A stretch of DNA of 64,000 nt from a bacterium (GTDB lineage Bacteria; UBA8248). The notes below the pieces were generated by a model. That model was not told the origin of the DNA, searched no databases, and saw nothing but the letters and a program-made list of their open reading frames with translations. Shown here piece by piece: positions 5,721 through 16,308 of the stretch (the first letter of the stretch is position 1; each line of letters starts with the position of its first letter). The position numbers were made by a program, and so were the translations under genes. Location: assembly GCA_965203325.1 (NCBI GenBank), contig OZ241875.1:4224001-4288000 (forward strand). The letters run 5' to 3'.

Positions 5721-6440
5721 ATGACCGCGTTCGACGACGATACCGGCACCCCGCTGGACGAGCGGCTGCGCCGGAGCATTGCGCTCTGGCGCGCGCGCCG
5801 CGGGATGAGCGCGAGGCGCTTCGGGGTGGGCGCGCTGGGCATTCCCGGCTTCGTGGGACTGCACGCCCGGGGGCGGCCCCTGCGGGTCGACACGGCGGAC
5901 CGGGTGCTCGCGTTCATGGGGTATCCGCCCCTGGGACCGCTCCTGCGGGCCGAGGTCGAGGCGTTTCTCGCGGTGAGCGGGACGAAGGTCTCGATCCTGG
6001 GCGAGGAGACCGTGGGGAATCCCTCCTTCGTAGGAAGGCTGCGCCGGGGCGCCTCGCCGTATCTCAAGACCTTCGACCGGGTGCGCGCCTGGATGGCGGC
6101 CAACGCGACGGGAGAGGAGGTCCGCGCCATACGCGAGAGGCTCGCGGACTTGCCCGATCCGTTCGACGGGACGTGGGACGCCGCCGGGGAACCCGGGGCC
6201 GCGGGAGACGTCGATGAACTTGCGGAGGAGAACCACCTAGACACGCGGGAGGCGGCCGCCTGGCTCGGCCTCTCGCCCAAGACGCTCGAGCGCTACCGCG
6301 TGAGCGGAGAGGGGCCGGATTTTCTTCGCACCGGATACCGGGTGCGCTACCTGCTCGAAGACCTCGAGAAGTGGGCCTCCGCCCGGAGGTGGACTTCCAC
6401 GTCCGAGGAGAGAGCCGCCCGGAGAAAGAAGAGGCGGTAG
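5721..6440 (+). CDS. Excisionase/HTH_17 domain protein with two N-terminal HTH-like repeats
   Basis: C-terminal LDTREAAAWLGLSPKTLERYRVSGEGPDFLRTGYRVRYLLEDLEKW; duplicated GxPxFVG(R)LxxG...TxDRVxA(F/W)M units. Confidence 0.75.
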   Translation: MTAFDDDTGTPLDERLRRSIALWRARRGMSARRFGVGALGIPGFVGLHARGRPLRVDTADRVLAFMGYPPLGPLLRAEVEAFLAVSGTKVSILGEETVGNPSFVGRLRRGASPYLKTFDRVRAWMAANATGEEVRAIRERLADLPDPFDGTWDAAGEPGAAGDVDELAEENHLDTREAAAWLGLSPKTLERYRVSGEGPDFLRTGYRVRYLLEDLEKWASARRWTSTSEERAARRKKRR

Positions 6441-6845
6441 AGAGATATTCGAGAGAAGACGGGCGTCCTGCACACTGCGGACCTGCCCGGAGCGAAGGAC
6501 ATGCTCACGACGAAACGCCGGGCGGACCTCACCGCCCGTAGCGCAGCCTCGCCATCGCGGCCACGGCCGCCGAGTGCCCCCCCTCGTAGAGATCCCCCCA
6601 GGTACGCCGCTATCCCGGCGTCGATCTCTGGGTTGCCCGAACGCTCGAATCCCCTAAGCGTCGGGTCGGATGGTCTTGCCCCCGTCGTTATGCCGAGAAG
6701 CCAACCTTCCGGGTCGGTGGTCGTGTCCATTCCCTGGGGCCGCCCGAGCGCCTCCTCGATTGCCAAGTATGGACGACGACGGGGAATTTCCACAAAAAAA
6801 AGCCGTTTCGCAAGCGAATACCGGCGAAACGGCGGGTTTCTGGAG

Positions 6846-7046
6846 TCCGATAATTGACGTTATCAGAAAATTTAACACCTCTCACGGCCATGTCAAGCAC
6901 GAATCCGGGGTCCCCGGAGGGGTTTCGGGTGCCGTTTTGCGTCTTTTTTCGCTCATGTTTCGCTCATTTGCAGCCCGAATGCCCCCCGAAACGGGTTTTT
7001 CGGCGGAAAACGGGGCTTCTGGGGGCCGATAACGTCAATTAGCGGA
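6846..7046. promoter_or_regulatory. Inverted-repeat-bounded segment containing a minus-strand sigma70-like promoter
   Basis: TAATTGACGTTATC (6851-6864) and its exact reverse complement (7028-7041); inside, minus strand TTGACA-16 nt-TAAATT with an extended -10 TG (6869-6896). Confidence 0.6.
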
Positions 7047-7158
7047 CACCAGCCCGGGTTCGAGGCGGCGCATACCGCAGGAATCCGCCTCTCGCGGAAA
7101 GACTCACGACCGGTTGCGTCAGCTTGAACCCGAAATCTCTGAACAGGGGGCATTCCAA

Positions 7159-10158
7159 ATGAAGAACATTGCACGGATCTCGATGCTGCCGGCGGCGGCG
7201 TTCTGCAGCGCGGTCCGGCGGCGTGAAGTGCGCCCGGCCGGGGCGCGCGAGCCGGCTCCCTCGACATCGGCGGGCTCCAGACGGCCTGACGCCCGCACCG
7301 GGCGCGGCCGCGCCCGCCGCCTCTCCCTCCTCCTCCCCGTCCTCGCGCTGCTGCTCGGCGCGCTCGGCCTGTTCGCCCCCGCGCCGGCGGAGGCGCAACG
7401 CGCCGGCCCGACTGTGACGGCAACCGCCGGGGACGCGAGCGTCAGGGTGAACTGGACCTTCACCGACACCGATCCCGCAGACTGGGAAATCGAGTACGGC
7501 GTGCATCCCAGCGGCTCGACCTCCACGGTGACGGAGTTTTCTTCGGGCGCCAGGTCGAGGACGATTACGGGCCTGACGAACGCTACGACCTACCGGTTTC
7601 GCGTGCGGGGAATAAACGCAAGACCCACCCAGTGGTCGGGCTGGGTCACGGCGACCCCGCAGGCCGCGACCCCCGGCGACCCCACGGGCGTGACGGTGAC
7701 GCCGGGGAATGCGCAGCTGTCGGTGTCGTGGACGGCGCCGTCGGGGACGGTGACGGGCTACGACGTGCACTACACGTCCTCGTCGACGGTTGCGGCGGGC
7801 GCGACGGTGCAGACCGTCTCGGCCGCGGCCGGCTGGCTGGCGCACCCCACCCGCACCGCCACCGACACCTCGACCTCGCAGACGATCTCGAGCCTGATGA
7901 ACGGCACGCCCTACCGGGTGCGGGTGCGGGCGAAGAACACCGCCGGCGACAGCGCCTGGGTGGTGAAGAGCGGCACGCCCAGCGCGCCCTCCGCCACGGC
8001 CGTCTGGTCGGCGACGCTTACGCCGCAGACGGTTACCGGTGGCGTTGGCTGTCTCACCAAGTCCCAATGCGATTCGCGACTCACCGACAACAGCTTCACA
8101 GTCGGCGGGACGGACTATCACTTTACTTTTCTCGTGGACTTCTCCGCCACGGGCCTTCAAGCGGCCTTCAATGCGGTTCCGAACGCTACGCTCCGGGCGC
8201 TCAAGTTTTGCGTGGGCACGACGGGGTATGAGATTGGCGCAGGGATTAGTCAGGCACTCTCCGCGTCCGCCATCGGCTGGTCCGCCGGCACCCCGGTCTC
8301 GCTGAGCATCGACACGTCCTGCACGGCGCAGATGACGCAATCCACGAACGCGAACCTGAGCGGTCTGACGGTGGGCAGCAGCACGAGTTCGGGCGGCCAG
8401 TACACGGATTTCAGCATCGGCACCTTCGGGGCGACGACGACGACCTACACGGCGTCGGTGGCGAACGACCAGACGCATGTGAAGCTGACGCCGACGGTGG
8501 CGGACACCGGCAAGGCGACGGTCGGGGTGCGCAAGGGCCAGGGCAGTTTCACGGCGGTGACGAGCGGCTCGGCGAGTTCGGCGATCGCGCTCGACGTGGG
8601 CGCGAACACGCTCACGGTGCGGGTGACGGCCGAGGACACGACGACGACCAAGGACTACACGGTCACCGTCACGCGGCGGCAGGCGCAGCAGACCCTGTCC
8701 ACGAACGCGGACCTGAGCGGCCTGACGGCGGGCAGCGCCACGAGTTCGACCGGCACGTTCACGAATTTCAGCATCGGCACCTTCGCGGCGACGACGACGA
8801 GCTACTCAGCGTCGGTGGCGAACGACCGGACGCATGTGAAGCTGACGCCGACGGTGGCGGACACCGGCAAGGCGACGGTGACGGTGGCCGGCAACGCGGT
8901 GAACAGCGGCTCGGCCAGCGGCCCCATCGCGCTTAGCGTGGGGGCCAACGCGATCACGGTGCGGGTGACGGCCGAGGACACGACGACGACCAAGGACTAC
9001 ACCGTCACCGTCACGCGGCAGGCGCTCCCGGCGAAGGTGACGACCGCCGTCTCCGGCACCATGACGGTCGGAGACGGAGGGAGCTGGAAGGGCTTTCGAG
9101 CCACACCAGTTGTTGGAGCGCTCTCTGACGCCGACTTCACCTACGGCGGGGTCGATTACAGGATCCTCGGTCTCCGGCTCGGAAACTCCGGCTATCTCGC
9201 CTTGCACCTGAACAAGGCCCTGGACCGCAATTGGGGCCTTGTGCTGAACGTTGGCGACAGCCGGTTCCGTATCGCGGATGCCGTTCTGTCCACGGGCCCG
9301 GGCTACGAGGGTGTAATAGCGGGCTGGTTCTATTCCAACCAGGGCGAAACGCCCCCGAGCTGGACCGTCGGCGACACCGTGCCGGTGAGCCTGGGGACGC
9401 TCACTTCCTCCACGGTGAAGCTCTCCGTCAGCCCGAACCCGGTGAACGAGGGCGCGTCGGCGAGCGTGGAGGCGTGCCTGTCGGCGGTGCCGCAGGGCAC
9501 CGTGCGCATTCCGGTGACGCTGAGCCACGGGACCTCGGAGGACGGCGACTGGGGGGTGTCGCTGACGGGCGACACGGACGGCCGCCTGCCGATCAGCACG
9601 GCGTACACCATCGCCATCAGCGGCTGGCTCCAGCGCGGCTGCGGCGTCGTCAACATCCCGACGCACCCGGACAGCGACGCCGACGACGAGACCTTCACGG
9701 TGGCGCTGGACACGGCCAGCCTGCCGCCGGGGGTGCGGGCGGGCAGCCCGGCCTCGGTGGTGGTGAGGATCAAGGACCTCACCGACTTGCCGGAGGTGAC
9801 GCTGCGGGCGGTGCGCCGCACGGTGGCCGAGGGTTCGCCGGTGGAGTTGCAGGTGGCCCTGACGGAGCCGCTGGCGACCGACGTGGCGATCCCGCTCAGG
9901 GTGAGGTGGGTCACGTCGGAGACGGCCGACCACGGGTTCGTCAGGAGCATCACGATCGCCGCCGGCGCGACGAGCGGGTCGGGCACGATCAGGACCTACG
10001 AGGACGACGACACGGACGACGAGCGCTTCCAGGTAGCGGTGATCCAGCCGGACCTGCCGGAGGGCGTGGCGCCGGGCTCACCGTCCACGGTCGGGATCAC
10101 GATCGTCGACGCGGCGAACGCCCGGCTGCGGGCGCTTGACTTGAATTCCGGCAATTAA
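7159..10158 (+). CDS. Secreted adhesin-like protein: 2x fibronectin III, 2x cadherin-like beta-sandwich, Calx-beta-like domains
   Basis: Signal ...LLLPVLALLLGALGLFAPAPAEA-Q; Fn3 motifs (ITGLTNATTYRFRVRG; LMNGTPYRVRVRA); STNA(N/D)LSGLT...KDYTVTVTR repeats; DSDADDETFTVAL and DDDTDDERFQVAV. Confidence 0.85.
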   Translation: MKNIARISMLPAAAFCSAVRRREVRPAGAREPAPSTSAGSRRPDARTGRGRARRLSLLLPVLALLLGALGLFAPAPAEAQRAGPTVTATAGDASVRVNWTFTDTDPADWEIEYGVHPSGSTSTVTEFSSGARSRTITGLTNATTYRFRVRGINARPTQWSGWVTATPQAATPGDPTGVTVTPGNAQLSVSWTAPSGTVTGYDVHYTSSSTVAAGATVQTVSAAAGWLAHPTRTATDTSTSQTISSLMNGTPYRVRVRAKNTAGDSAWVVKSGTPSAPSATAVWSATLTPQTVTGGVGCLTKSQCDSRLTDNSFTVGGTDYHFTFLVDFSATGLQAAFNAVPNATLRALKFCVGTTGYEIGAGISQALSASAIGWSAGTPVSLSIDTSCTAQMTQSTNANLSGLTVGSSTSSGGQYTDFSIGTFGATTTTYTASVANDQTHVKLTPTVADTGKATVGVRKGQGSFTAVTSGSASSAIALDVGANTLTVRVTAEDTTTTKDYTVTVTRRQAQQTLSTNADLSGLTAGSATSSTGTFTNFSIGTFAATTTSYSASVANDRTHVKLTPTVADTGKATVTVAGNAVNSGSASGPIALSVGANAITVRVTAEDTTTTKDYTVTVTRQALPAKVTTAVSGTMTVGDGGSWKGFRATPVVGALSDADFTYGGVDYRILGLRLGNSGYLALHLNKALDRNWGLVLNVGDSRFRIADAVLSTGPGYEGVIAGWFYSNQGETPPSWTVGDTVPVSLGTLTSSTVKLSVSPNPVNEGASASVEACLSAVPQGTVRIPVTLSHGTSEDGDWGVSLTGDTDGRLPISTAYTIAISGWLQRGCGVVNIPTHPDSDADDETFTVALDTASLPPGVRAGSPASVVVRIKDLTDLPEVTLRAVRRTVAEGSPVELQVALTEPLATDVAIPLRVRWVTSETADHGFVRSITIAAGATSGSGTIRTYEDDDTDDERFQVAVIQPDLPEGVAPGSPSTVGITIVDAANARLRALDLNSGN
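8341..9020 (+). repeat. Near-identical tandem duplication of a cadherin-like domain inside the adhesin
   Basis: 8341-8670 and 8698-9020 share long identical stretches (e.g. GACGCATGTGAAGCTGACGCCGACGGTGGCGGACACCGGCAAGGCGACGGT). Confidence 0.9.
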
Positions 10159-10172
10159 GGGGGGCATGTCCG

Positions 10173-12593
10173 ATGAAGAAGATTGTACGGATTGCGGTGC
10201 TGCTGTCGGCGGCGTTGTGCATGGCGACGGGCGCCGGGGCCGGGCAGGTGAGCCTGGACGGTGCGTTCGACCCGGACCGCGCGACCTACAGCGCGACGGT
10301 GGCCCACGACGTGACCGAGGTCACGGTGAACGCGAGCCCCGAGAACCCGAATGCGCGGGTGACGGTGAACGGCGGCGACCCCGCGACGCCGGTGGCGCTG
10401 GCCGTGGGGAAGAATACCATCGTGGTGGTGGTGACGGCGCCGGACGCGCGCTACACGCGCACCTACACGGTGACGGTGACGCGCGAGGCGGCGCCGGAGC
10501 CGGCGCGGCAGCAGGTGGCGCAGCAGCAGGCGTCGGAGCCGCTGACGGCGGCGTTCGAGGGAGCGCCGGAAGAGCATGACGGCAAGGCGGCGTTGGCGCT
10601 GGAGGTGCGTTTCAGCGAGGCGCTGGGCGAGACCGCGAGCGCTCCGGCCGCGGCCTCTTTCGCCGTGACGGGCGGCAGGGTCAAGCAGGTGCGGAAGGTG
10701 GCGTCCGGCCTGTGGCGGGTGCGCGTCGCGCCGAAGTCGTGGAAGGACGTGACGGTGACGCTGGCGGGCGGGCGCGCCTGCGGCGCGGCGGGCGCGGTGT
10801 GCACGGCCGACGGGAGGGCGCTCACGAACACGTCGAGTATGACCATAGGCGGCCCGGTGCGCATCCGGGTCGCGGACGCGCGGGGGAAGGAAGGCAAGGA
10901 CGCATCGCTGGACTTCGCGGTGACGCTGAGCCGCGCGGCGTCGGGGCCGGTCTCGGTGGACTACGCGACCGAGGACGGCACGGCGGCGGCGGGGGCGGAC
11001 TACACGGCCACGTCGGGCACCCTGACCTTCGCGGTGGGCGAGACGGCGAAGACGGTCTCGGTGCCGCTGCTCGACGACGCCATCGACGAGGGCAAGGAGA
11101 CGTTCAAGCTCAAGCTGTCGAACCCCCGGGGGGCGTATCTGCGGGGGATTCACCGCCAGGCGAAGGGGGTGATCCGCAACGACGACCCGCTGCAAAGGAT
11201 GTGGCTCGCGCGGTTCGGGCGCACGGCGGCGGGCCACGTCGCCGGGGCGATTGACGGACGCCTTTCGGGCGGCGCCGCCGCGGGCGTCGTGCTGGGCGGC
11301 CACAGCCTCTCAGGCAAGGCGGAGCGCGAGGCCATCGAGTCGCGCCTCGCCGAGGCCCTGCTCAAGGAGAGGGAGGCCCGGCTCGGGCGCGGCGAGGAGG
11401 CGCAGGCATCCCCGGTGCGCGAGGTCGCGATGTCCGATCTCCTGCTCGCGAGTTCGTTTCACATGGCCTCGGCGGAGAAGGTGGACGCCGGCTCGCGCTG
11501 GTCGCTGTGGGGCCGGGGCGCGCGCTCCTCGTTCGAGGGCGCCGAGGGCGATCTCTCGCTGGATGGCGACGTGACGACGGCGACCGTGGGCTTCGACTAC
11601 GAGCGCGCGCGCTGGCTGGTGGGCGTGGCGCTCTCGCGAAGCGCGGGCGACGGCTCGTACAAGGCGGGCGGCGCGTGCGATACGGGCTGCGCGGGCGAGG
11701 TGGAGAGCACGCTTACGGGTGTCTACCCCTACGCGCGCTACCGCGTGAGCGGGACGTTCTCGCTCTGGGGCGCTGTGGGCCACGGGCAGGGGGAGATGAC
11801 GCTCACGCCCGGGGGGTCGTCCCCGGTGGAGGCCGACGTGGCGATGGGCATGGCGGCGGCGGGGGCGCGCGGGGTCGTTCTGCCCGCGCGCGCGGCGGGC
11901 GGGTTCGAGCTCGCGCTCCGCGCGGACGTCCTGGTGACGAACACGCGCTCGGACGCCGCGGCGGGCCTTGCGGAGACCGACGCGGAGACGAGCCGCGTGC
12001 GCCTCGTGCTGGAGGGTTCGCGCTCGCTCAGGTTCGGCGATGCGGTGCTGACGCCCTCGCTGGAGATAGGGTTCCGGAACGATTCGGGCGACGCGGAGAC
12101 GGGCGGCGGGGTGGAGGCCGGCGGTTCGGTCCGCTGGACCTCGGGGGCCCTGACGACGGAGGTGCGCGCGCGCGGCCTGCTCTCCCACGGCGAGAGCGGT
12201 TATGAGGAATGGGGCGTGAGCGCCTCGGTGGCGTACGCTCCGGGCTCCGGGGGACGGGGCCTCACGCTTCGGGCGGGCTCCTCGTGGGGCGCCTCCGCCG
12301 GCGGTGCGGAGCGGCTCTGGTCGCAGGCGGCGGGCCTGGCGCCTGCCGGTGCGTTCGAGCCGGGCGGTGCGGGCTTCGAGGCCGAGGCGGCCTGGGGCCT
12401 GGACGCCCCCCGGGGGCTGCTGACGCCCTATACGGGCGTGGCGGTCTCGGGGAACGCGGAGACCTGGCGCGCGGGCGCGCGCTGGAAGCCCGGGGCGGCC
12501 ACGGAGGTGAGCCTCGAGGCGAGCCTCACCGAACAGGCCGGCGGCGGGAGACCCGAAGGCGGCCTCCTGCTCAGAGGCTCGAAGCGGTGGTAG
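10173..12593 (+). CDS. Autotransporter-type outer-membrane protein (signal peptide, truncated cadherin-like domain, Calx-beta, C-terminal beta-barrel)
   Basis: Own signal peptide; Calx-beta VSVDYATEDGTAAAGADY...DDAIDEGKETF; linker WLARFGRTAAGHV; amphipathic barrel strands ending in W. Confidence 0.85.
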   Translation: MKKIVRIAVLLSAALCMATGAGAGQVSLDGAFDPDRATYSATVAHDVTEVTVNASPENPNARVTVNGGDPATPVALAVGKNTIVVVVTAPDARYTRTYTVTVTREAAPEPARQQVAQQQASEPLTAAFEGAPEEHDGKAALALEVRFSEALGETASAPAAASFAVTGGRVKQVRKVASGLWRVRVAPKSWKDVTVTLAGGRACGAAGAVCTADGRALTNTSSMTIGGPVRIRVADARGKEGKDASLDFAVTLSRAASGPVSVDYATEDGTAAAGADYTATSGTLTFAVGETAKTVSVPLLDDAIDEGKETFKLKLSNPRGAYLRGIHRQAKGVIRNDDPLQRMWLARFGRTAAGHVAGAIDGRLSGGAAAGVVLGGHSLSGKAEREAIESRLAEALLKEREARLGRGEEAQASPVREVAMSDLLLASSFHMASAEKVDAGSRWSLWGRGARSSFEGAEGDLSLDGDVTTATVGFDYERARWLVGVALSRSAGDGSYKAGGACDTGCAGEVESTLTGVYPYARYRVSGTFSLWGAVGHGQGEMTLTPGGSSPVEADVAMGMAAAGARGVVLPARAAGGFELALRADVLVTNTRSDAAAGLAETDAETSRVRLVLEGSRSLRFGDAVLTPSLEIGFRNDSGDAETGGGVEAGGSVRWTSGALTTEVRARGLLSHGESGYEEWGVSASVAYAPGSGGRGLTLRAGSSWGASAGGAERLWSQAAGLAPAGAFEPGGAGFEAEAAWGLDAPRGLLTPYTGVAVSGNAETWRAGARWKPGAATEVSLEASLTEQAGGGRPEGGLLLRGSKRW

Positions 12594-13234
12594 GGGCGGA
12601 CCCGGGGGGTAGCGCAGGCCGTTCCTCCCGGCCCGCTTCATCGCGGTCCCCCTCCCGGCGGGAGGGGGCGCGCATCCCGCTCTCCCGCGTGGTTTCAGGC
12701 GGCGGGGTTTCCGGCGGTAGTAAAATCTCCTGATCCCGTTGATATCATCGAGAAGCATTCATTTCCCCGGGTCTCGTCCGGAATCCACCTTCCGCAGCAA
12801 GTAATCAAAACGCTAACGAGGGGAATCAAGCCTCTGCGCATCCCGGGGCATGCCTGCCGGATCATTGCGCCATTCCCCTCTTCGGGCCGGCCCGGACAGC
12901 CTGATCGCGGCAATACTCCGGCGCTCCGCCCGGGGCGTGATCGAGCCACTTCCGGCGTTCTTGTCCATGCGCGTCTCCCCTTTCGTCCCTTTCGCTCATC
13001 CCGGGTGCATACGGTAGTCCGCACCGCACGGAAATAAACTGAAAAACCGCCCGCTTGCAAGGGGTTTCGATATCCGCATTCCAGCGCCCGGGGGCCGGGG
13101 CGTTCATCGTGCGCCTCCCCCGGGCCCCGCACCGGCGAGAGGCCGAGCCGGGCCGTGATGGGGCGCGGGAGCCGGGCCGGAGAGGCCGGGCGGCGCCCGC
13201 GATCCCCTTTCTCACAATCCCGGAGGCGCGACCC

Positions 13235-13576
13235 ATGAGTAACCAAAATCCATCCCGCACCGCGAGGCTGCTCGTCCTGGCGGGACTTGGCCTGGCCCTC
13301 CTCGCCACGATTCTCCTTCTCGCGGCAGGCAGCGGCCTCCGCCACCTGGGGGCCGTCTGGGCCTGTTCGGCCCTCTGGTGCCTCCTCACAGCCCTCTCGT
13401 GCGTCCTGTGGCGGGGGTTCCGCCACGGGGACTGGTCCGCCTTCGCTCGCTACGAACTGCCCGACGGGAAAGAAGAGGATTTCGAGTGGTCCGCCCGCAC
13501 CGGACGCTACGCCTGGCGCCGCGACGTCGAGGAGGAGGAACTGTTCGGCCAGGACCCGGACGCACCCTTCCCGTAG
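13235..13576 (+). CDS. Small membrane protein
   Basis: GGAGG RBS; two hydrophobic helices and an acidic tail. Confidence 0.55.
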   Translation: MSNQNPSRTARLLVLAGLGLALLATILLLAAGSGLRHLGAVWACSALWCLLTALSCVLWRGFRHGDWSAFARYELPDGKEEDFEWSARTGRYAWRRDVEEEELFGQDPDAPFP

Positions 13577-13763
13577 AAGGCCCAAGCCGAACGAAGACTC
13601 TCCTGAACGAACGGACCGCCTTCTTTCCCGCCGGCGGTGGCTCTGCGCCACCGGGAGGCGGAGTCCGACCGGGAGGGGGCGGCGGAGGGGAGCCGGGAGG
13701 GAGTCTTCTCGCGTTCGAGGCTCGCCTCCGCCGCCATCATCCACCCACCCAAGGAGGCGCGCG

Positions 13764-14060
13764 ATGCGAAAACCCGGACCCGAAGCGAGTACTTTCCTCA
13801 CCCACCTGTTCGGCCGAGGCCTTGAGGACGAACGCTACGAAGTGAAACGCTACAAGTCCGCCGATGGCGACATCAGGCCCGTGCCCGACAGGGAGAGCGG
13901 GAGGCGCAAGAAGAAGAGAGCGACGGCCTCGCGGAAAGCCGTACGCGAGATGCGGCCCGCGCGGGACGAACTCATCGTCTGCACGGGGATCAGGATCCCC
14001 GGCAGCGGGCTGCAACTGTGGGGCGAGCACCTCGTGTGGGCCCGGATGCTGTGCCGGTGA
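13764..14060 (+). CDS. Hypothetical protein (paralogous remnant at 38161-38226)
   Basis: AAGGAGG RBS; SRKAVREMRPARDELIVCTGIR segment conserved in a second copy. Confidence 0.55.
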   Translation: MRKPGPEASTFLTHLFGRGLEDERYEVKRYKSADGDIRPVPDRESGRRKKKRATASRKAVREMRPARDELIVCTGIRIPGSGLQLWGEHLVWARMLCR

Positions 14061-14153
14061 GGAACTCCCCCCCGGGAGGACTTCCGCCCGCAAGCCGTCT
14101 CGCCGGCCCGGCGCCGGCCGCACGATTCCATCCACCCCAGGGAGGGAGGCGGG

Positions 14154-14960
14154 ATGCCCTACAAGGACCTGGAAAAGGCCCGAGCTTACGAGCGCGAGCG
14201 CCACCGCAAACGCACCGCCGACCGACTCGCGCGCGGCCTGTGCCCCCGGTGCGGAAAGATTCCTCCCGCGCCCGGGCGCAGTCTGTGCGAGCCCTGCGGA
14301 GAGAGGGATCGGGAGACCCGACGCGCCCGATACGCCGAAGCCCGAGCGGGGGGAGCCCCATATGGCGGCCGCTGCCCCGAGAGCCGCCGCCGCATGGCGC
14401 GCGAGAGGGCGAGGAAGCGCAGGCGCGAGCGGGTGGAGACCGGCTTGTGCCCGCGCTGCGGACGCGAGCCCGTCGAGGCCGGCGCCGTCTGCGAACCCTG
14501 CCGGGAGACGAGGCGCGCTGAAGAGCGGAAGCTCTACGCCGCCAAGAGAGCGAAAGGGCTTTGCGGACGGTGTGGTGCGGAAGTCGTCGATGAGGCTTCG
14601 ACGTGCGCTTCGTGCGCCGCAAAACAAGAAAAACGCCGGCCGCGCAAGAACACCGCGAGCCGGGCGCGCTATCGCGACAGGCGGGCACGGTCGGTTTGTG
14701 TCGACTGCGGCGCCCATGCGGACGCAGGGGTGAGATGTACTCCCTGCGCGCGCCGATCGTACCACTCCTCGGGAGAGCACAAGGGGATGCCCGTCTATCC
14801 GCCGCGCTTCACCGTGGTCGAACTAGCCACGGGCGAGGAGCACGGACCCTGGGACTCCTGGGAGGAGGTGGCCATGTGCCTCGCCTTCGAGAAGCTCTCC
14901 CGCGAGGAAGTGGAAGTCATCGAAGACGCACCGCTCATTGCGTCCATGACCGGTTGGTAG
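14154..14960 (+). CDS. Arg-rich protein with four tandem CxxC...CxxC zinc-finger-like repeats
   Basis: GLCPRCG..CEPC twice, GLCGRCG..CASC, VCVDCG..CTPC; GGAGG RBS. Confidence 0.75.
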   Translation: MPYKDLEKARAYERERHRKRTADRLARGLCPRCGKIPPAPGRSLCEPCGERDRETRRARYAEARAGGAPYGGRCPESRRRMARERARKRRRERVETGLCPRCGREPVEAGAVCEPCRETRRAEERKLYAAKRAKGLCGRCGAEVVDEASTCASCAAKQEKRRPRKNTASRARYRDRRARSVCVDCGAHADAGVRCTPCARRSYHSSGEHKGMPVYPPRFTVVELATGEEHGPWDSWEEVAMCLAFEKLSREEVEVIEDAPLIASMTGW

Positions 14961-14981
14961 TCGCCGTCCTCGCCACGCCCT

Positions 14982-15833
14982 TCATCCCGTGTCGACCTCG
15001 ATCAGCAGCCGGCAATGGTCGCTGGCGCCCCACTCATCCACGTCGTTGAGCGCGCGGACCCGCACCCTCTCGTGAAAACCCCGCGAGGCGAAGGCGTAGT
15101 CGAGCTGGCGGTCGGCTTCCGCCGGCGACCTGCCCGGGGGATAGTGCGTCGGGACGTTCCGCGTATCGGCCGGCACGTCGGGCGGGGGCGACGCCGCCTG
15201 CCTGCCGCCGGGCGCCTGCGGACCCAGGAACTCAAGTCCCAGCGCATCCATCCGCGCCCATACCGTGCGCTCGCGCACGGGCAGCGACAGGCTGTGGCCC
15301 GTCGCGCCGTAGAACATGTTCAGGTCGCCCGCGGCCAGGATGCGGTGCATGGATGGGTCGGTGTGGCCGATGAAGGCCGAGAGGTCCGAGATGATCCGGT
15401 GCGCCGAAACGTCGGAAGCGCCGACCCTGAACGGACTTCCTGTAGTAGGATGGGGCTTCATCCAGCGCGCGTACATCGAGACCGCCACGAACGCCTCCTC
15501 TTCGTCCTCACGCGGGACCACCCGCGCGGCGGCGATGGTGCCGATGCCGCTCACGCCGACGTCGCCCCCGCCGAGGTGGCTGATCGGGGGGACCTCGCGA
15601 AAGCGCTCGACCCGGACCCGGCCGGACAACCCGGCGATCAGACACCATCGGTCATAGAGGTGACGGCTCCAGAAAACGTCGTCCTCGCGGGGGAGCAGGT
15701 GCGCCAGGTCGCCAGGCGGGCTCCCGGCTTCCTGGAGCAGCGCGACGTCCGCCTCGTCCCGCCTCGCCATCCTCGCCAGTTCGCGCCACGGCTCCTGGCG
15801 CCTGGCGATATTCCAGCTCACGACCCTGATCAT
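14982..15833 (-). CDS. Endonuclease/exonuclease/phosphatase (EEP) family protein
   Basis: Motifs VVSWN, DVALLQE, AGDLN, LDYAF, SDH. Confidence 0.85.
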   Translation of the reverse strand: MIRVVSWNIARRQEPWRELARMARRDEADVALLQEAGSPPGDLAHLLPREDDVFWSRHLYDRWCLIAGLSGRVRVERFREVPPISHLGGGDVGVSGIGTIAAARVVPREDEEEAFVAVSMYARWMKPHPTTGSPFRVGASDVSAHRIISDLSAFIGHTDPSMHRILAAGDLNMFYGATGHSLSLPVRERTVWARMDALGLEFLGPQAPGGRQAASPPPDVPADTRNVPTHYPPGRSPAEADRQLDYAFASRGFHERVRVRALNDVDEWGASDHCRLLIEVDTG

Positions 15834-15945
15834 CCCGGAAACCTCCTCTCCACGCCCGCCGGGGTACGTACGGCCGGCCCGCCGCCGGGGGGCAGACCCG
15901 GCCGGGGGGAGGGTTTACGCCGCCCTGCTGCGCAGCCGGCCGGTT

Positions 15946-16308
15946 TCAGTCCGACACGGGGAGCCACCACCACAACAGCCAGGCCGGGAGACTGAGAACG
16001 ACCGCCCAGGCGGCTATCGCGAGCGGGCCGGGGAGTCCCGCCACCAGGGGCGCCGTTACCGCTCCGAGCCCCGCCCACGTCGCCCAGGCGGCGCGGCGCC
16101 AACCCAGCCGCCATATCTGCCGGCAAGCCAGGGCGAGGGGCAACCCGCACGGCGCAAGCGTTGCCGCCGAGGAGGGCAGCATCGGCGTCCAGCCCTCGGG
16201 ATCCGCCCAGAAGCGCACGGCGGCGGTCACGACTGCCCCGACAGGCAGCCACAAGAGCGCGAGCGGCCAGAAGCCGCGCCGTCTGTGCTGCTCCCCTTCG
16301 ATGAGCAT
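15946..16308 (-). CDS. Small membrane protein
   Basis: Hydrophobic Trp/Leu-rich ORF with several TM-like segments. Confidence 0.5.
   Translation of the reverse strand: MLIEGEQHRRRGFWPLALLWLPVGAVVTAAVRFWADPEGWTPMLPSSAATLAPCGLPLALACRQIWRLGWRRAAWATWAGLGAVTAPLVAGLPGPLAIAAWAVVLSLPAWLLWWWLPVSD

Follow-up and report, generated by a model that had tools for sequence, protein, structure and literature searches.

A cadherin-like domain divided between two adjacent genes as a candidate docking element of an autotransporter-type adhesin

How can one domain be shared by two neighbouring genes whose products each bear an export signal, and what might the two products do with its parts? This question is raised by positions 7159-12593 of the window, i.e., the whole 64,000-nucleotide stretch of bacterial DNA analysed here (contig OZ241875.1 of assembly GCA_965203325.1, positions 4,224,001 to 4,288,000), which belongs to a genome (G000) of one closed contig of 4.39 Mb. 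Two open reading frames (ORFs), here named P1 and P2, lie there in tandem (Table 1). An earlier, sequence-only reading had described P1 as a protein without a barrel that ends in a strand, and P2 as a protein with its own signal peptide and a domain lacking that strand, and the translations and Pfam searches bear out this description. The split is correctly observed, since the domain of P2 begins at the element that follows an L-x-x-L-x-[VL] strand and P1 ends with such a strand.

The end of P1 and the beginning of P2

Two fn3 and two Cadherin-like (PF12733) domains were recognised by Pfam in P1, the latter family scoring 105 bits over two stretches. Both intact internal repeats of P1 read STNA[ND]LSGLT[VA]GS...FSIGTF...YT[AS]ASV...YTVTVTR, with a short insert between the first strand and FSIGTF, and the C-terminus of the protein reads ...ITIVDAANARLRALDLNSGN, with AANARLRALDLNSGN as its final residues before the stop codon TAA. 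The N-terminus of P2 reads MKKIVRIAVLLSAALCMATGAGAG, then QVSLDGAFDPDRATYSATVAHD...YTVTVTR (also QVSLDGAFDPDRATYSATV...). Residues 30-105 of P2 match PF12733 with an E value of 2.5e-19 and 70 bits (cut-off 24.2), and the domain (residues 25-105) is modelled by AlphaFold2 (AF2) with a predicted local distance difference test score (pLDDT) of 76-88.

Every one of the 38 intact cadherin-like domains listed is preceded by a strand of the L-x-x-L-x-[VLAT] type (strand A), which is also retained where such a domain directly follows a signal peptide in the unrelated proteins P0016, P0055 and P0058. The N-terminal domain of P2 and its relatives is preceded by a signal peptide only. With a clade hidden Markov model (HMM), the N-domain of P2 gave 163 bits, whereas no intact domain of these proteins scored above 46 bits. 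Two fused relatives score 78-85 bits with this model, less than the split clade and more than any other cadherin-like domain. One of them, L056, carries ...NYAWESANNYLKGLRMSSGG (...WESANNYLKGLRMSSGG), a 53-aa loop and then GETLALTPAFDDEVYEYTARVPHNV... (GETLALTPAF...); the other, P0137, carries ...HNHSWRSADARLNQLSMRVED (...WRSADARLNQLSMRVED), a 13-aa loop and then VDFDRAFARGEADPPAYRARVAHDV... (VDFDRAF...). At the equivalent place the upstream member of a split pair ends, with ...HNTAWESANERLRQLELEIGQ-stop in L033 and ...HNFDWESANNRLGELVMRASQ-stop in L055, and fused paralogues within G000 run across it as a single chain (...ILNDEAHLDGLSVEGAASAGGPWAKLDLGAFAAETTAYAVTV). Because L056 and P0137 hold this strand and the remainder of the domain in one chain, with a loop between them, the tail of P1 is, judged from sequence comparison, descended from strand A of P2's domain. 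The proposal that the tail is the missing first strand of that domain is thus upheld by its collinearity with strand A of both fused relatives.

Is the arrangement peculiar to this locus? The junction set comprises 12 cases, three in G000, eight in three metagenome-assembled genomes (MAGs) labelled Alphaproteobacteria (G058-G060; loci L028, L029, L045, L030, L031, L033, L041 and L048) and one on the metagenome contig L055; the additional junctions were found by scans of species-representative genomes, of the three genomes thus reached and of metagenomes. A first idea, a recent recombination confined to G000 between the 5' leader of the family and the middle of a fused gene, was dropped because the junction turned up in these other genomes. 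That idea had drawn on the homology between the start regions of P1 and P2, on the absence of the module from the rest of G000's order, and on 40 related genomes, in which each match beyond G000 that covered the N-terminal domain of P2 sat in a long open frame. Without exception, the 12 junctions have an upstream ORF that bears a signal peptide of its own and closes, in frame, with the tail; the stop codon lies 12-14 nt ahead of the ATG of P2 (about 45 nt in L055), so the pairing of the two genes, with the tail upstream of strandless partners, is conserved. The three split loci of G000 are 94-99% identical at their junctions. The upstream partners vary, with open frames of 370, 535, 1257, 1033 and 389 codons, and the tail is preceded by a Calx-like, an fn3 or an unrelated domain, depending on the locus. 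The tails seen are NARLRALDLN[STA]GN, NARLRALDLSGN, TARLRDLQLNPGN, NPRLRDLQMNTGN, NPRLRALQLNAGN, NERLRQLELEIGQ and NNRLGELVMRASQ.

Codon usage within these tails indicates that the tail is under constraint at the amino-acid level. In the alignment of 11 junctions the residues R, L, R, L and G do not vary, and in the 12 tails they are encoded by synonymous codons (CGG/CGC for one R and CGG/CGC/CGT for the other, CTT/CTG/CTC and TTG/CTC for the two L, GGC/GGA/GGG for G). Conserved positions show no replacements other than R to G, L to M and G to S, which are found mainly in the pair that has diverged most. The hydrophobic pattern of the tail, L-x-x-L-x-[LM], is that of strand A in intact copies, and the consensus A-x-L-x-x-L-x-L suggested earlier came close to the pattern found, N-x-R-L-[RG]-x-L-x-[LM]-x(1-2)-[GS]-[NQ]-end. 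Within the 4.39-Mb genome the specific tail occurs three times, each time 14 nt before a copy of P2, which places the junction beyond chance.

Database searches extend this picture. Residues 1-120 of P2 retrieved 61 near-length matches, 41 of which show a signal peptide and then the strandless domain at residue 23-43. These 41 P2-type proteins score at least 104 bits with the clade HMM, other matches at most 53 bits, save two N-terminally truncated fragments. A score of 100 bits is reached by a single one of 68 longer database proteins, which is also of the P2 type, and the same model found no internal domain of the split clade among the 68. The last 140 residues of P1 retrieved 29 proteins, 18 of them at 74% identity or more; 16 of these 18, with lengths of 626-1745 aa, end exactly in the tail, and the 11 more distant matches have different ends. 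Homologues of this clade are therefore nearly always split and not fused. Split pairs whose N-domains are 54-65% identical to that of P2 retain both halves.

The barrel-bearing protein P2

The sequence-only reading took P2 to be an autotransporter. Fold comparison supports this assignment, which needs one correction: the barrel escapes Pfam profiles. PF03797 (Autotransporter beta-domain) had no match in P2 at E values up to 10, the only barrel family hit being OMP_b-brl (E 0.012), below the cut-off, and no autotransporter model of NCBIfam matched the protein. Sequence searches of the PDB with the N-domain of P2, an intact repeat of P1 and the barrel were empty or meaningless. In a wide VIA-align search of 48,161 representative chains with the AF2 model of P2 residues 335-806 (pLDDT 70), the top six matches were all classical type Va autotransporter translocators, with Z scores of 18.6 for AIDA-I, NalP and Hbp, 17.5 for EstA, 16.4 for EspP and 16.2 for AaaA. 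All six alignments start at the pre-barrel helix and cover 246-262 residues at a root-mean-square deviation of 3.5-4.6; helices are modelled ahead of the barrel at residues 340-364 and 385-403. Foldseek placed BrkA, Hbp, EspP and NalP among the best matches of the C-terminus, and returned mostly Calx-beta and immunoglobulin-like (Ig-like) matches for the whole model of P2. According to DSSP, the barrel has about 18 long strands in both AF2 models (window 11500-12593, residues ~442-804) versus 12 in classical barrels, the last five strands being of lower confidence and outside the part aligned to known translocators. P2 is thus predicted to have a classical (type Va-like) autotransporter fold, on the ground of fold comparison and not of a profile.

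The signal peptide of P2 is kept in 10 aligned copies, and its residues 1-23 have a pLDDT below 50 in the AF2 model. An invariant cysteine lies inside it (Cys16, window 10218-10220), in the setting AALC in the 10 aligned copies and VALC in L055. Lipoprotein anchoring of P2 was considered and not adopted, Cys16 being preceded by Leu, which is off the canonical lipobox.

Proposed docking of the two products and its alternatives

What could the two proteins do with a divided domain? The locus is best explained as a conserved autotransporter adhesin of the classical (type Va-like) kind that is encoded by two genes, the cut falling in the loop that links strand A to the remainder of a cadherin-like domain. 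P1 is the variable partner, which has several domains and an export signal but no barrel and whose last 12-13 residues correspond to strand A, and P2 provides, behind its signal peptide, the remainder of the split domain, a Calx-beta domain, a linker helix and an autotransporter-type barrel. By strand complementation, the C-terminal strand of P1 would insert into the incomplete N-terminal domain of P2, and this docking would tether an exchangeable distal module (P1) to a constant anchored stalk (P2). The last residue of the tail and the mature N-terminus of P2 would be adjacent in the completed fold, as in a nicked domain. Such physical docking is the best-supported reading of the locus, and we infer with slightly better than even confidence that it takes place. 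Co-folding of P2 residues 25-112 with the last 119 residues of P1 gave no verdict, with scores of 0.33, 0.31 and 0.28 against a mark of 0.32 and 0.00 for three controls. Isopeptide ligation of the SpyTag kind was also considered, and was rejected as no invariant lysine was seen on inspection of P2's domain.

The comparison with donor-strand systems is a well-motivated analogy and not a result. Subunits of chaperone-usher pili miss their C-terminal G strand, and an N-terminal extension acts as the donor. The proposed pair resembles them in that an incomplete Ig-like fold would be completed by a strand of another polypeptide, but P2 misses an N-terminal A strand, the donor would be the C-terminal tail of P1, and a one-to-one pair instead of a polymer would result. 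No chaperone or usher gene was found among the scanned flanking ORFs of the locus, no genome-wide search having been made for them. In the type V pili of Bacteroidota (FimA/Mfa1), a protease removes the N-terminal strand of a lipoprotein precursor, which opens a groove, and the subunits polymerise. The polarity there is the same, with the C-terminal strand(s) of a partner filling the place of an absent N-terminal strand; unlike in those pili, the strand of P2 is absent from the gene itself, the acceptor would be an autotransporter, and a canonical lipobox is lacking.

Among secretion systems, type Va proteins (AIDA-I, NalP, Hbp and EspP) share with P2 the order of signal peptide, Ig-like and Calx-beta passenger, helix and C-terminal barrel, and the fused paralogues in G000 look like ordinary single-chain versions of this plan. 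The present locus differs from them in that its distal passenger forms an ORF of its own, with a separate signal peptide, at all 12 junctions, in the cut running through a domain, and in the features of the barrel noted above, i.e., the missing PF03797 match and the larger number of modelled strands. Type Vb (TpsA/TpsB) resembles the locus in that passenger-like and barrel proteins are separate and encoded side by side; according to PMC3297439, it is the only two-chain class and is defined by a two-partner secretion (TPS) domain and POTRA domains. No Pfam match to TPS/Haemagg_act was found in P1 and none to a POTRA family in P2, and PF05860 had no match genome-wide, though its control was also silent. 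Unlike a type Vb barrel protein, P2 has a passenger of its own, and the candidate recognition element is a C-terminal strand and not an N-terminal 300-residue domain. A further likeness is found in proteins that are cleaved but remain attached, such as AIDA-I/Ag43 passengers and GAIN-domain proteins, in which two polypeptides are joined non-covalently via a shared fold at the surface (cf. bioRxiv 10.64898/2026.05.12.724683); these are made and exported as one chain and cut later, whereas P1 and P2 would be made and exported separately. The open-access full texts that were searched hold no report of an autotransporter that is cut within a domain or put together by strand donation. Since a described type V system either unites passenger and barrel in a single polypeptide or combines a TPS-domain protein with a POTRA-bearing barrel, the split Ig-like pair fits neither plan.

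By which route could P1 reach the surface? A search of the closed 4.39-Mb genome for secretins (PF00263) gave no match, the control being positive in 6 of 14 genomes, which leaves the translocator of P2 as the only evident route. P1 might be held at its C-terminal strand by the domain of P2 that is incomplete and emerges last, and then be carried or threaded through P2's translocator. This would constitute a new mode of type V display, in which an adhesin consists of two pieces and recombination at an unchanging 'tag/catcher' junction can replace the distal one, and it is put forward tentatively, as the more doubtful step beyond docking itself.

Several observations weigh against docking, and the passage of P1 across the outer membrane is its main weakness. 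Classical passengers cross this membrane unfolded, the C-terminal end going first and the N-terminal end last, so that P1, as a second non-covalent chain, would have no described route. The view that strand A is integral to the fold relies on its presence in all intact copies together with what is known of Ig-like folds. The 12 tails fall into roughly four classes and most of them are very similar, so that few independent lineages are represented in the sample. The junction (tail, stop codon, ribosome-binding site and signal peptide) is also conserved as DNA and travels as a unit in a recombining family; as the whole junction is conserved in this way and relics of it occur elsewhere, part of the conservation of the tail could be due to hitch-hiking. 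In G000's order the module occurs in G000 alone among 44 genomes. The family of P1/P2-type split adhesins turns over quickly: two of the five P2-type genes of G060 are broken with the upstream tails intact in both (L041 and L048, one stopping after ~353 residues without a barrel and the other frameshifted after ~57 residues), and two of the 18 close relatives of P1 (P0075 and P0082) are frameshifted and end in out-of-frame readings of the tail stretch.

Three other explanations have to be set against docking. An assembly or sequencing artefact, or programmed recoding by read-through or frameshift that yields one fused protein, might be suspected from the five junctions at which nothing but one stop interrupts a frame shared by P1 and P2; the other seven, however, show a change of frame, and neither the spacer nor the G-run has a constant length among the copies. 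This variation rules out recoding and frameshift artefacts and agrees with the earlier claim of a clean split. Moreover, reading through the TAA of P1 in frame meets a TGA five codons on in the window, a fused product would place a hydrophobic signal peptide within a domain loop, and the junction is present in independent assemblies and is bridged by short contigs of other public runs (X3 record 19; X4 records 29 and 30), one of which carries a further tail variant. Such an origin is accordingly rated as extremely improbable. A different account takes the fission as functional and the two products as independent, P1 being periplasmic or released and P2 a shorter adhesin; the tail would then be kept within a DNA module that serves as the translation-initiation region of P2, by translational coupling, and as a recombination handle for cassette shuffling. 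It draws on the homology of the junction, over ~110 nt, to the standard 5' leader of the family, on the G-run ribosome-binding site immediately after the stop codon, and on the upstream boundary of the module, which in L045, L028 and L029 falls where the tail begins. It also draws on the mosaic build of P1. The three P1 copies of G000 (C1: 4231033-4234158; 1992862-1996101(-); 1259227-1262400(-), the last two approximate) are ~95% identical over their C-terminal ~600 aa and unrelated over their N-terminal 300-400 aa, where one copy has fn3 pairs, a second carries some other module and the third is of a shorter form; by this comparison the distal tip of P1 is being exchanged. A coupling element, however, would need neither the L-x-x-L-x-[LM] pattern of strand A nor an exact C-terminal position. 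The synonymous changes at conserved tail residues, the retention of a strand-like tail in L055 despite diverged DNA and a ~45-nt spacer, and the frame shared by the tail with a long exported ORF at all 12 junctions speak against this account as well, which is considered unlikely, if still to be reckoned with.

Could P1 simply be on its way to loss? A fused adhesin gene might have been broken once and its pieces spread by duplication and transfer. The ratio of nonsynonymous to synonymous substitution rates (dN/dS) might suggest so, being 0.73-0.86 in P1 (shared C-terminal 600 residues) versus 0.30-0.37 in P2, as might the broken P2 copies, the frameshifted P1 relatives, the restriction of the module to G000 within its order, and a GC content of 0.68-0.73 at the locus (window 6000-16000) versus 0.604 in the genome, which suggests recent acquisition. 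In two intact fused paralogues, however, dN/dS amounts to 0.56-1.81 in the distal passenger and 0.11-0.58 in the barrel-proximal part; the value of P1 lies within the range of these distal passengers and is thus ordinary for the family, and this control rules out dN/dS as a sign of a dead P1. Decay also sits poorly with the retention of both halves in the diverged split pairs, with the sixteen intact P1 relatives that keep the tail over a wide range of lengths, and with the joining of the tail to at least three different kinds of preceding domain. In view of this depth and breadth of conservation, slow decay is regarded as improbable.

If docking of P1 to P2 is true, the way in which a second non-covalent chain crosses the outer membrane becomes a sharp and testable question. 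Symbionts could then diversify adhesin tips while keeping one anchor, and the locus would offer a natural, genetically encoded split-domain docking pair, reusable as a tool for protein assembly. The size of the tail (12-13 residues) and of the acceptor (~80 residues) permits direct testing.

Setting of the locus and smaller observations

Table 1. Features of the split locus and its upstream flank (window coordinates)
Feature	Position	Strand	Description
HTH_17 gene	5721-6440	+	Excisionase-like DNA-binding protein; Pfam PF12728, E 1.7e-07
Inverted repeats, 25 nt	6840-6864 and 7028-7052		92% complementary; flank 163 nt just upstream of P1
Relic split junction, 5' end of P1	7100-7215	+	DRLRQLEPEISEQGAFQ, then MKNIARISMLPAAAFCSA; in-frame fusion to P1's own signal peptide
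P1	7159-10158	+	999 aa, without barrel; signal peptide region, two fn3, two intact cadherin-like and Calx-like domains, terminal tail
Tail NARLRALDLNSGN (P1 residues 987-999)	10117-10155	+	Strand A, by descent, of the cadherin-like domain that continues in P2; stop TAA at 10156-10158
Intergenic spacer, 14 nt	10159-10172	+	G-run ribosome-binding site; AAGGGGGG counted from 10157
P2	10173-12593	+	806 aa, own signal peptide
P2 signal peptide (residues 1-24)	10173-10244	+	By inspection: MKK, hydrophobic core of 13-15 residues, small-residue c-region
Cadherin-like beta-sandwich domain without strand A (P2 residues 25-105)	10245-10487	+	Pfam PF12733
Calx-beta domain (P2 residues 245-320)	10905-11132	+	Pfam PF03160, E 1.3e-19; Foldseek: CBD1/CBD2 and integrin beta4 Calx domains
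Linker helix and C-terminal outer-membrane beta-barrel (P2 residues 339-806, ...SKRW)	11187-12593	+	Predicted from AF2 model

The flanking ORFs scanned with Pfam include a helix-turn-helix (HTH) protein, a zinc-ribbon protein and an Exo_endo_phos protein. Homologous HTH ORFs lie upstream of all three split loci of G000 and in L029. The inverted repeats upstream of P1 may possibly act as an invertible promoter switch; no recombinase gene was found among the scanned ORFs near the locus. The closest relatives of the N-domain of P2, at 80-93% amino-acid identity, belong to MAGs labelled Alphaproteobacteria, and these relatives, the GC content of the locus and the absence of the module from the rest of G000's order look like transfer across distant lineages. 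Among four public runs examined, the one with a plain habitat label is a sponge metagenome, and transfer among symbionts that share a habitat is plausible.

The 5' end of P1 itself holds a relic of a split junction, in which a tail-like DRLRQLEPEISEQ that has lost its stop codon is followed by a P2-type start (MKNIARISML...) and then by a second, ordinary signal peptide. Its DNA hardly differs from the live junction of L033, whose stop TAG reads CAG in the relic, and in this non-functional copy two conserved tail positions are altered (L to P and G to S). Fused paralogues of G000 carry the same relic leader (par3-par6; C1:2557121, 2078061(-), 3869525(-) and 705891). As the relic is fused in frame ahead of P1's signal peptide, the true start codon of P1 is uncertain. 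About 60 nt on either side of the ATG of P2 are homologous to the region around P1's own start. The G-run at 10159-10164 and its equivalents in L028-L048 vary from 4 to 7 G between copies, a variation that might change the translation of P2 or reflect slippage.

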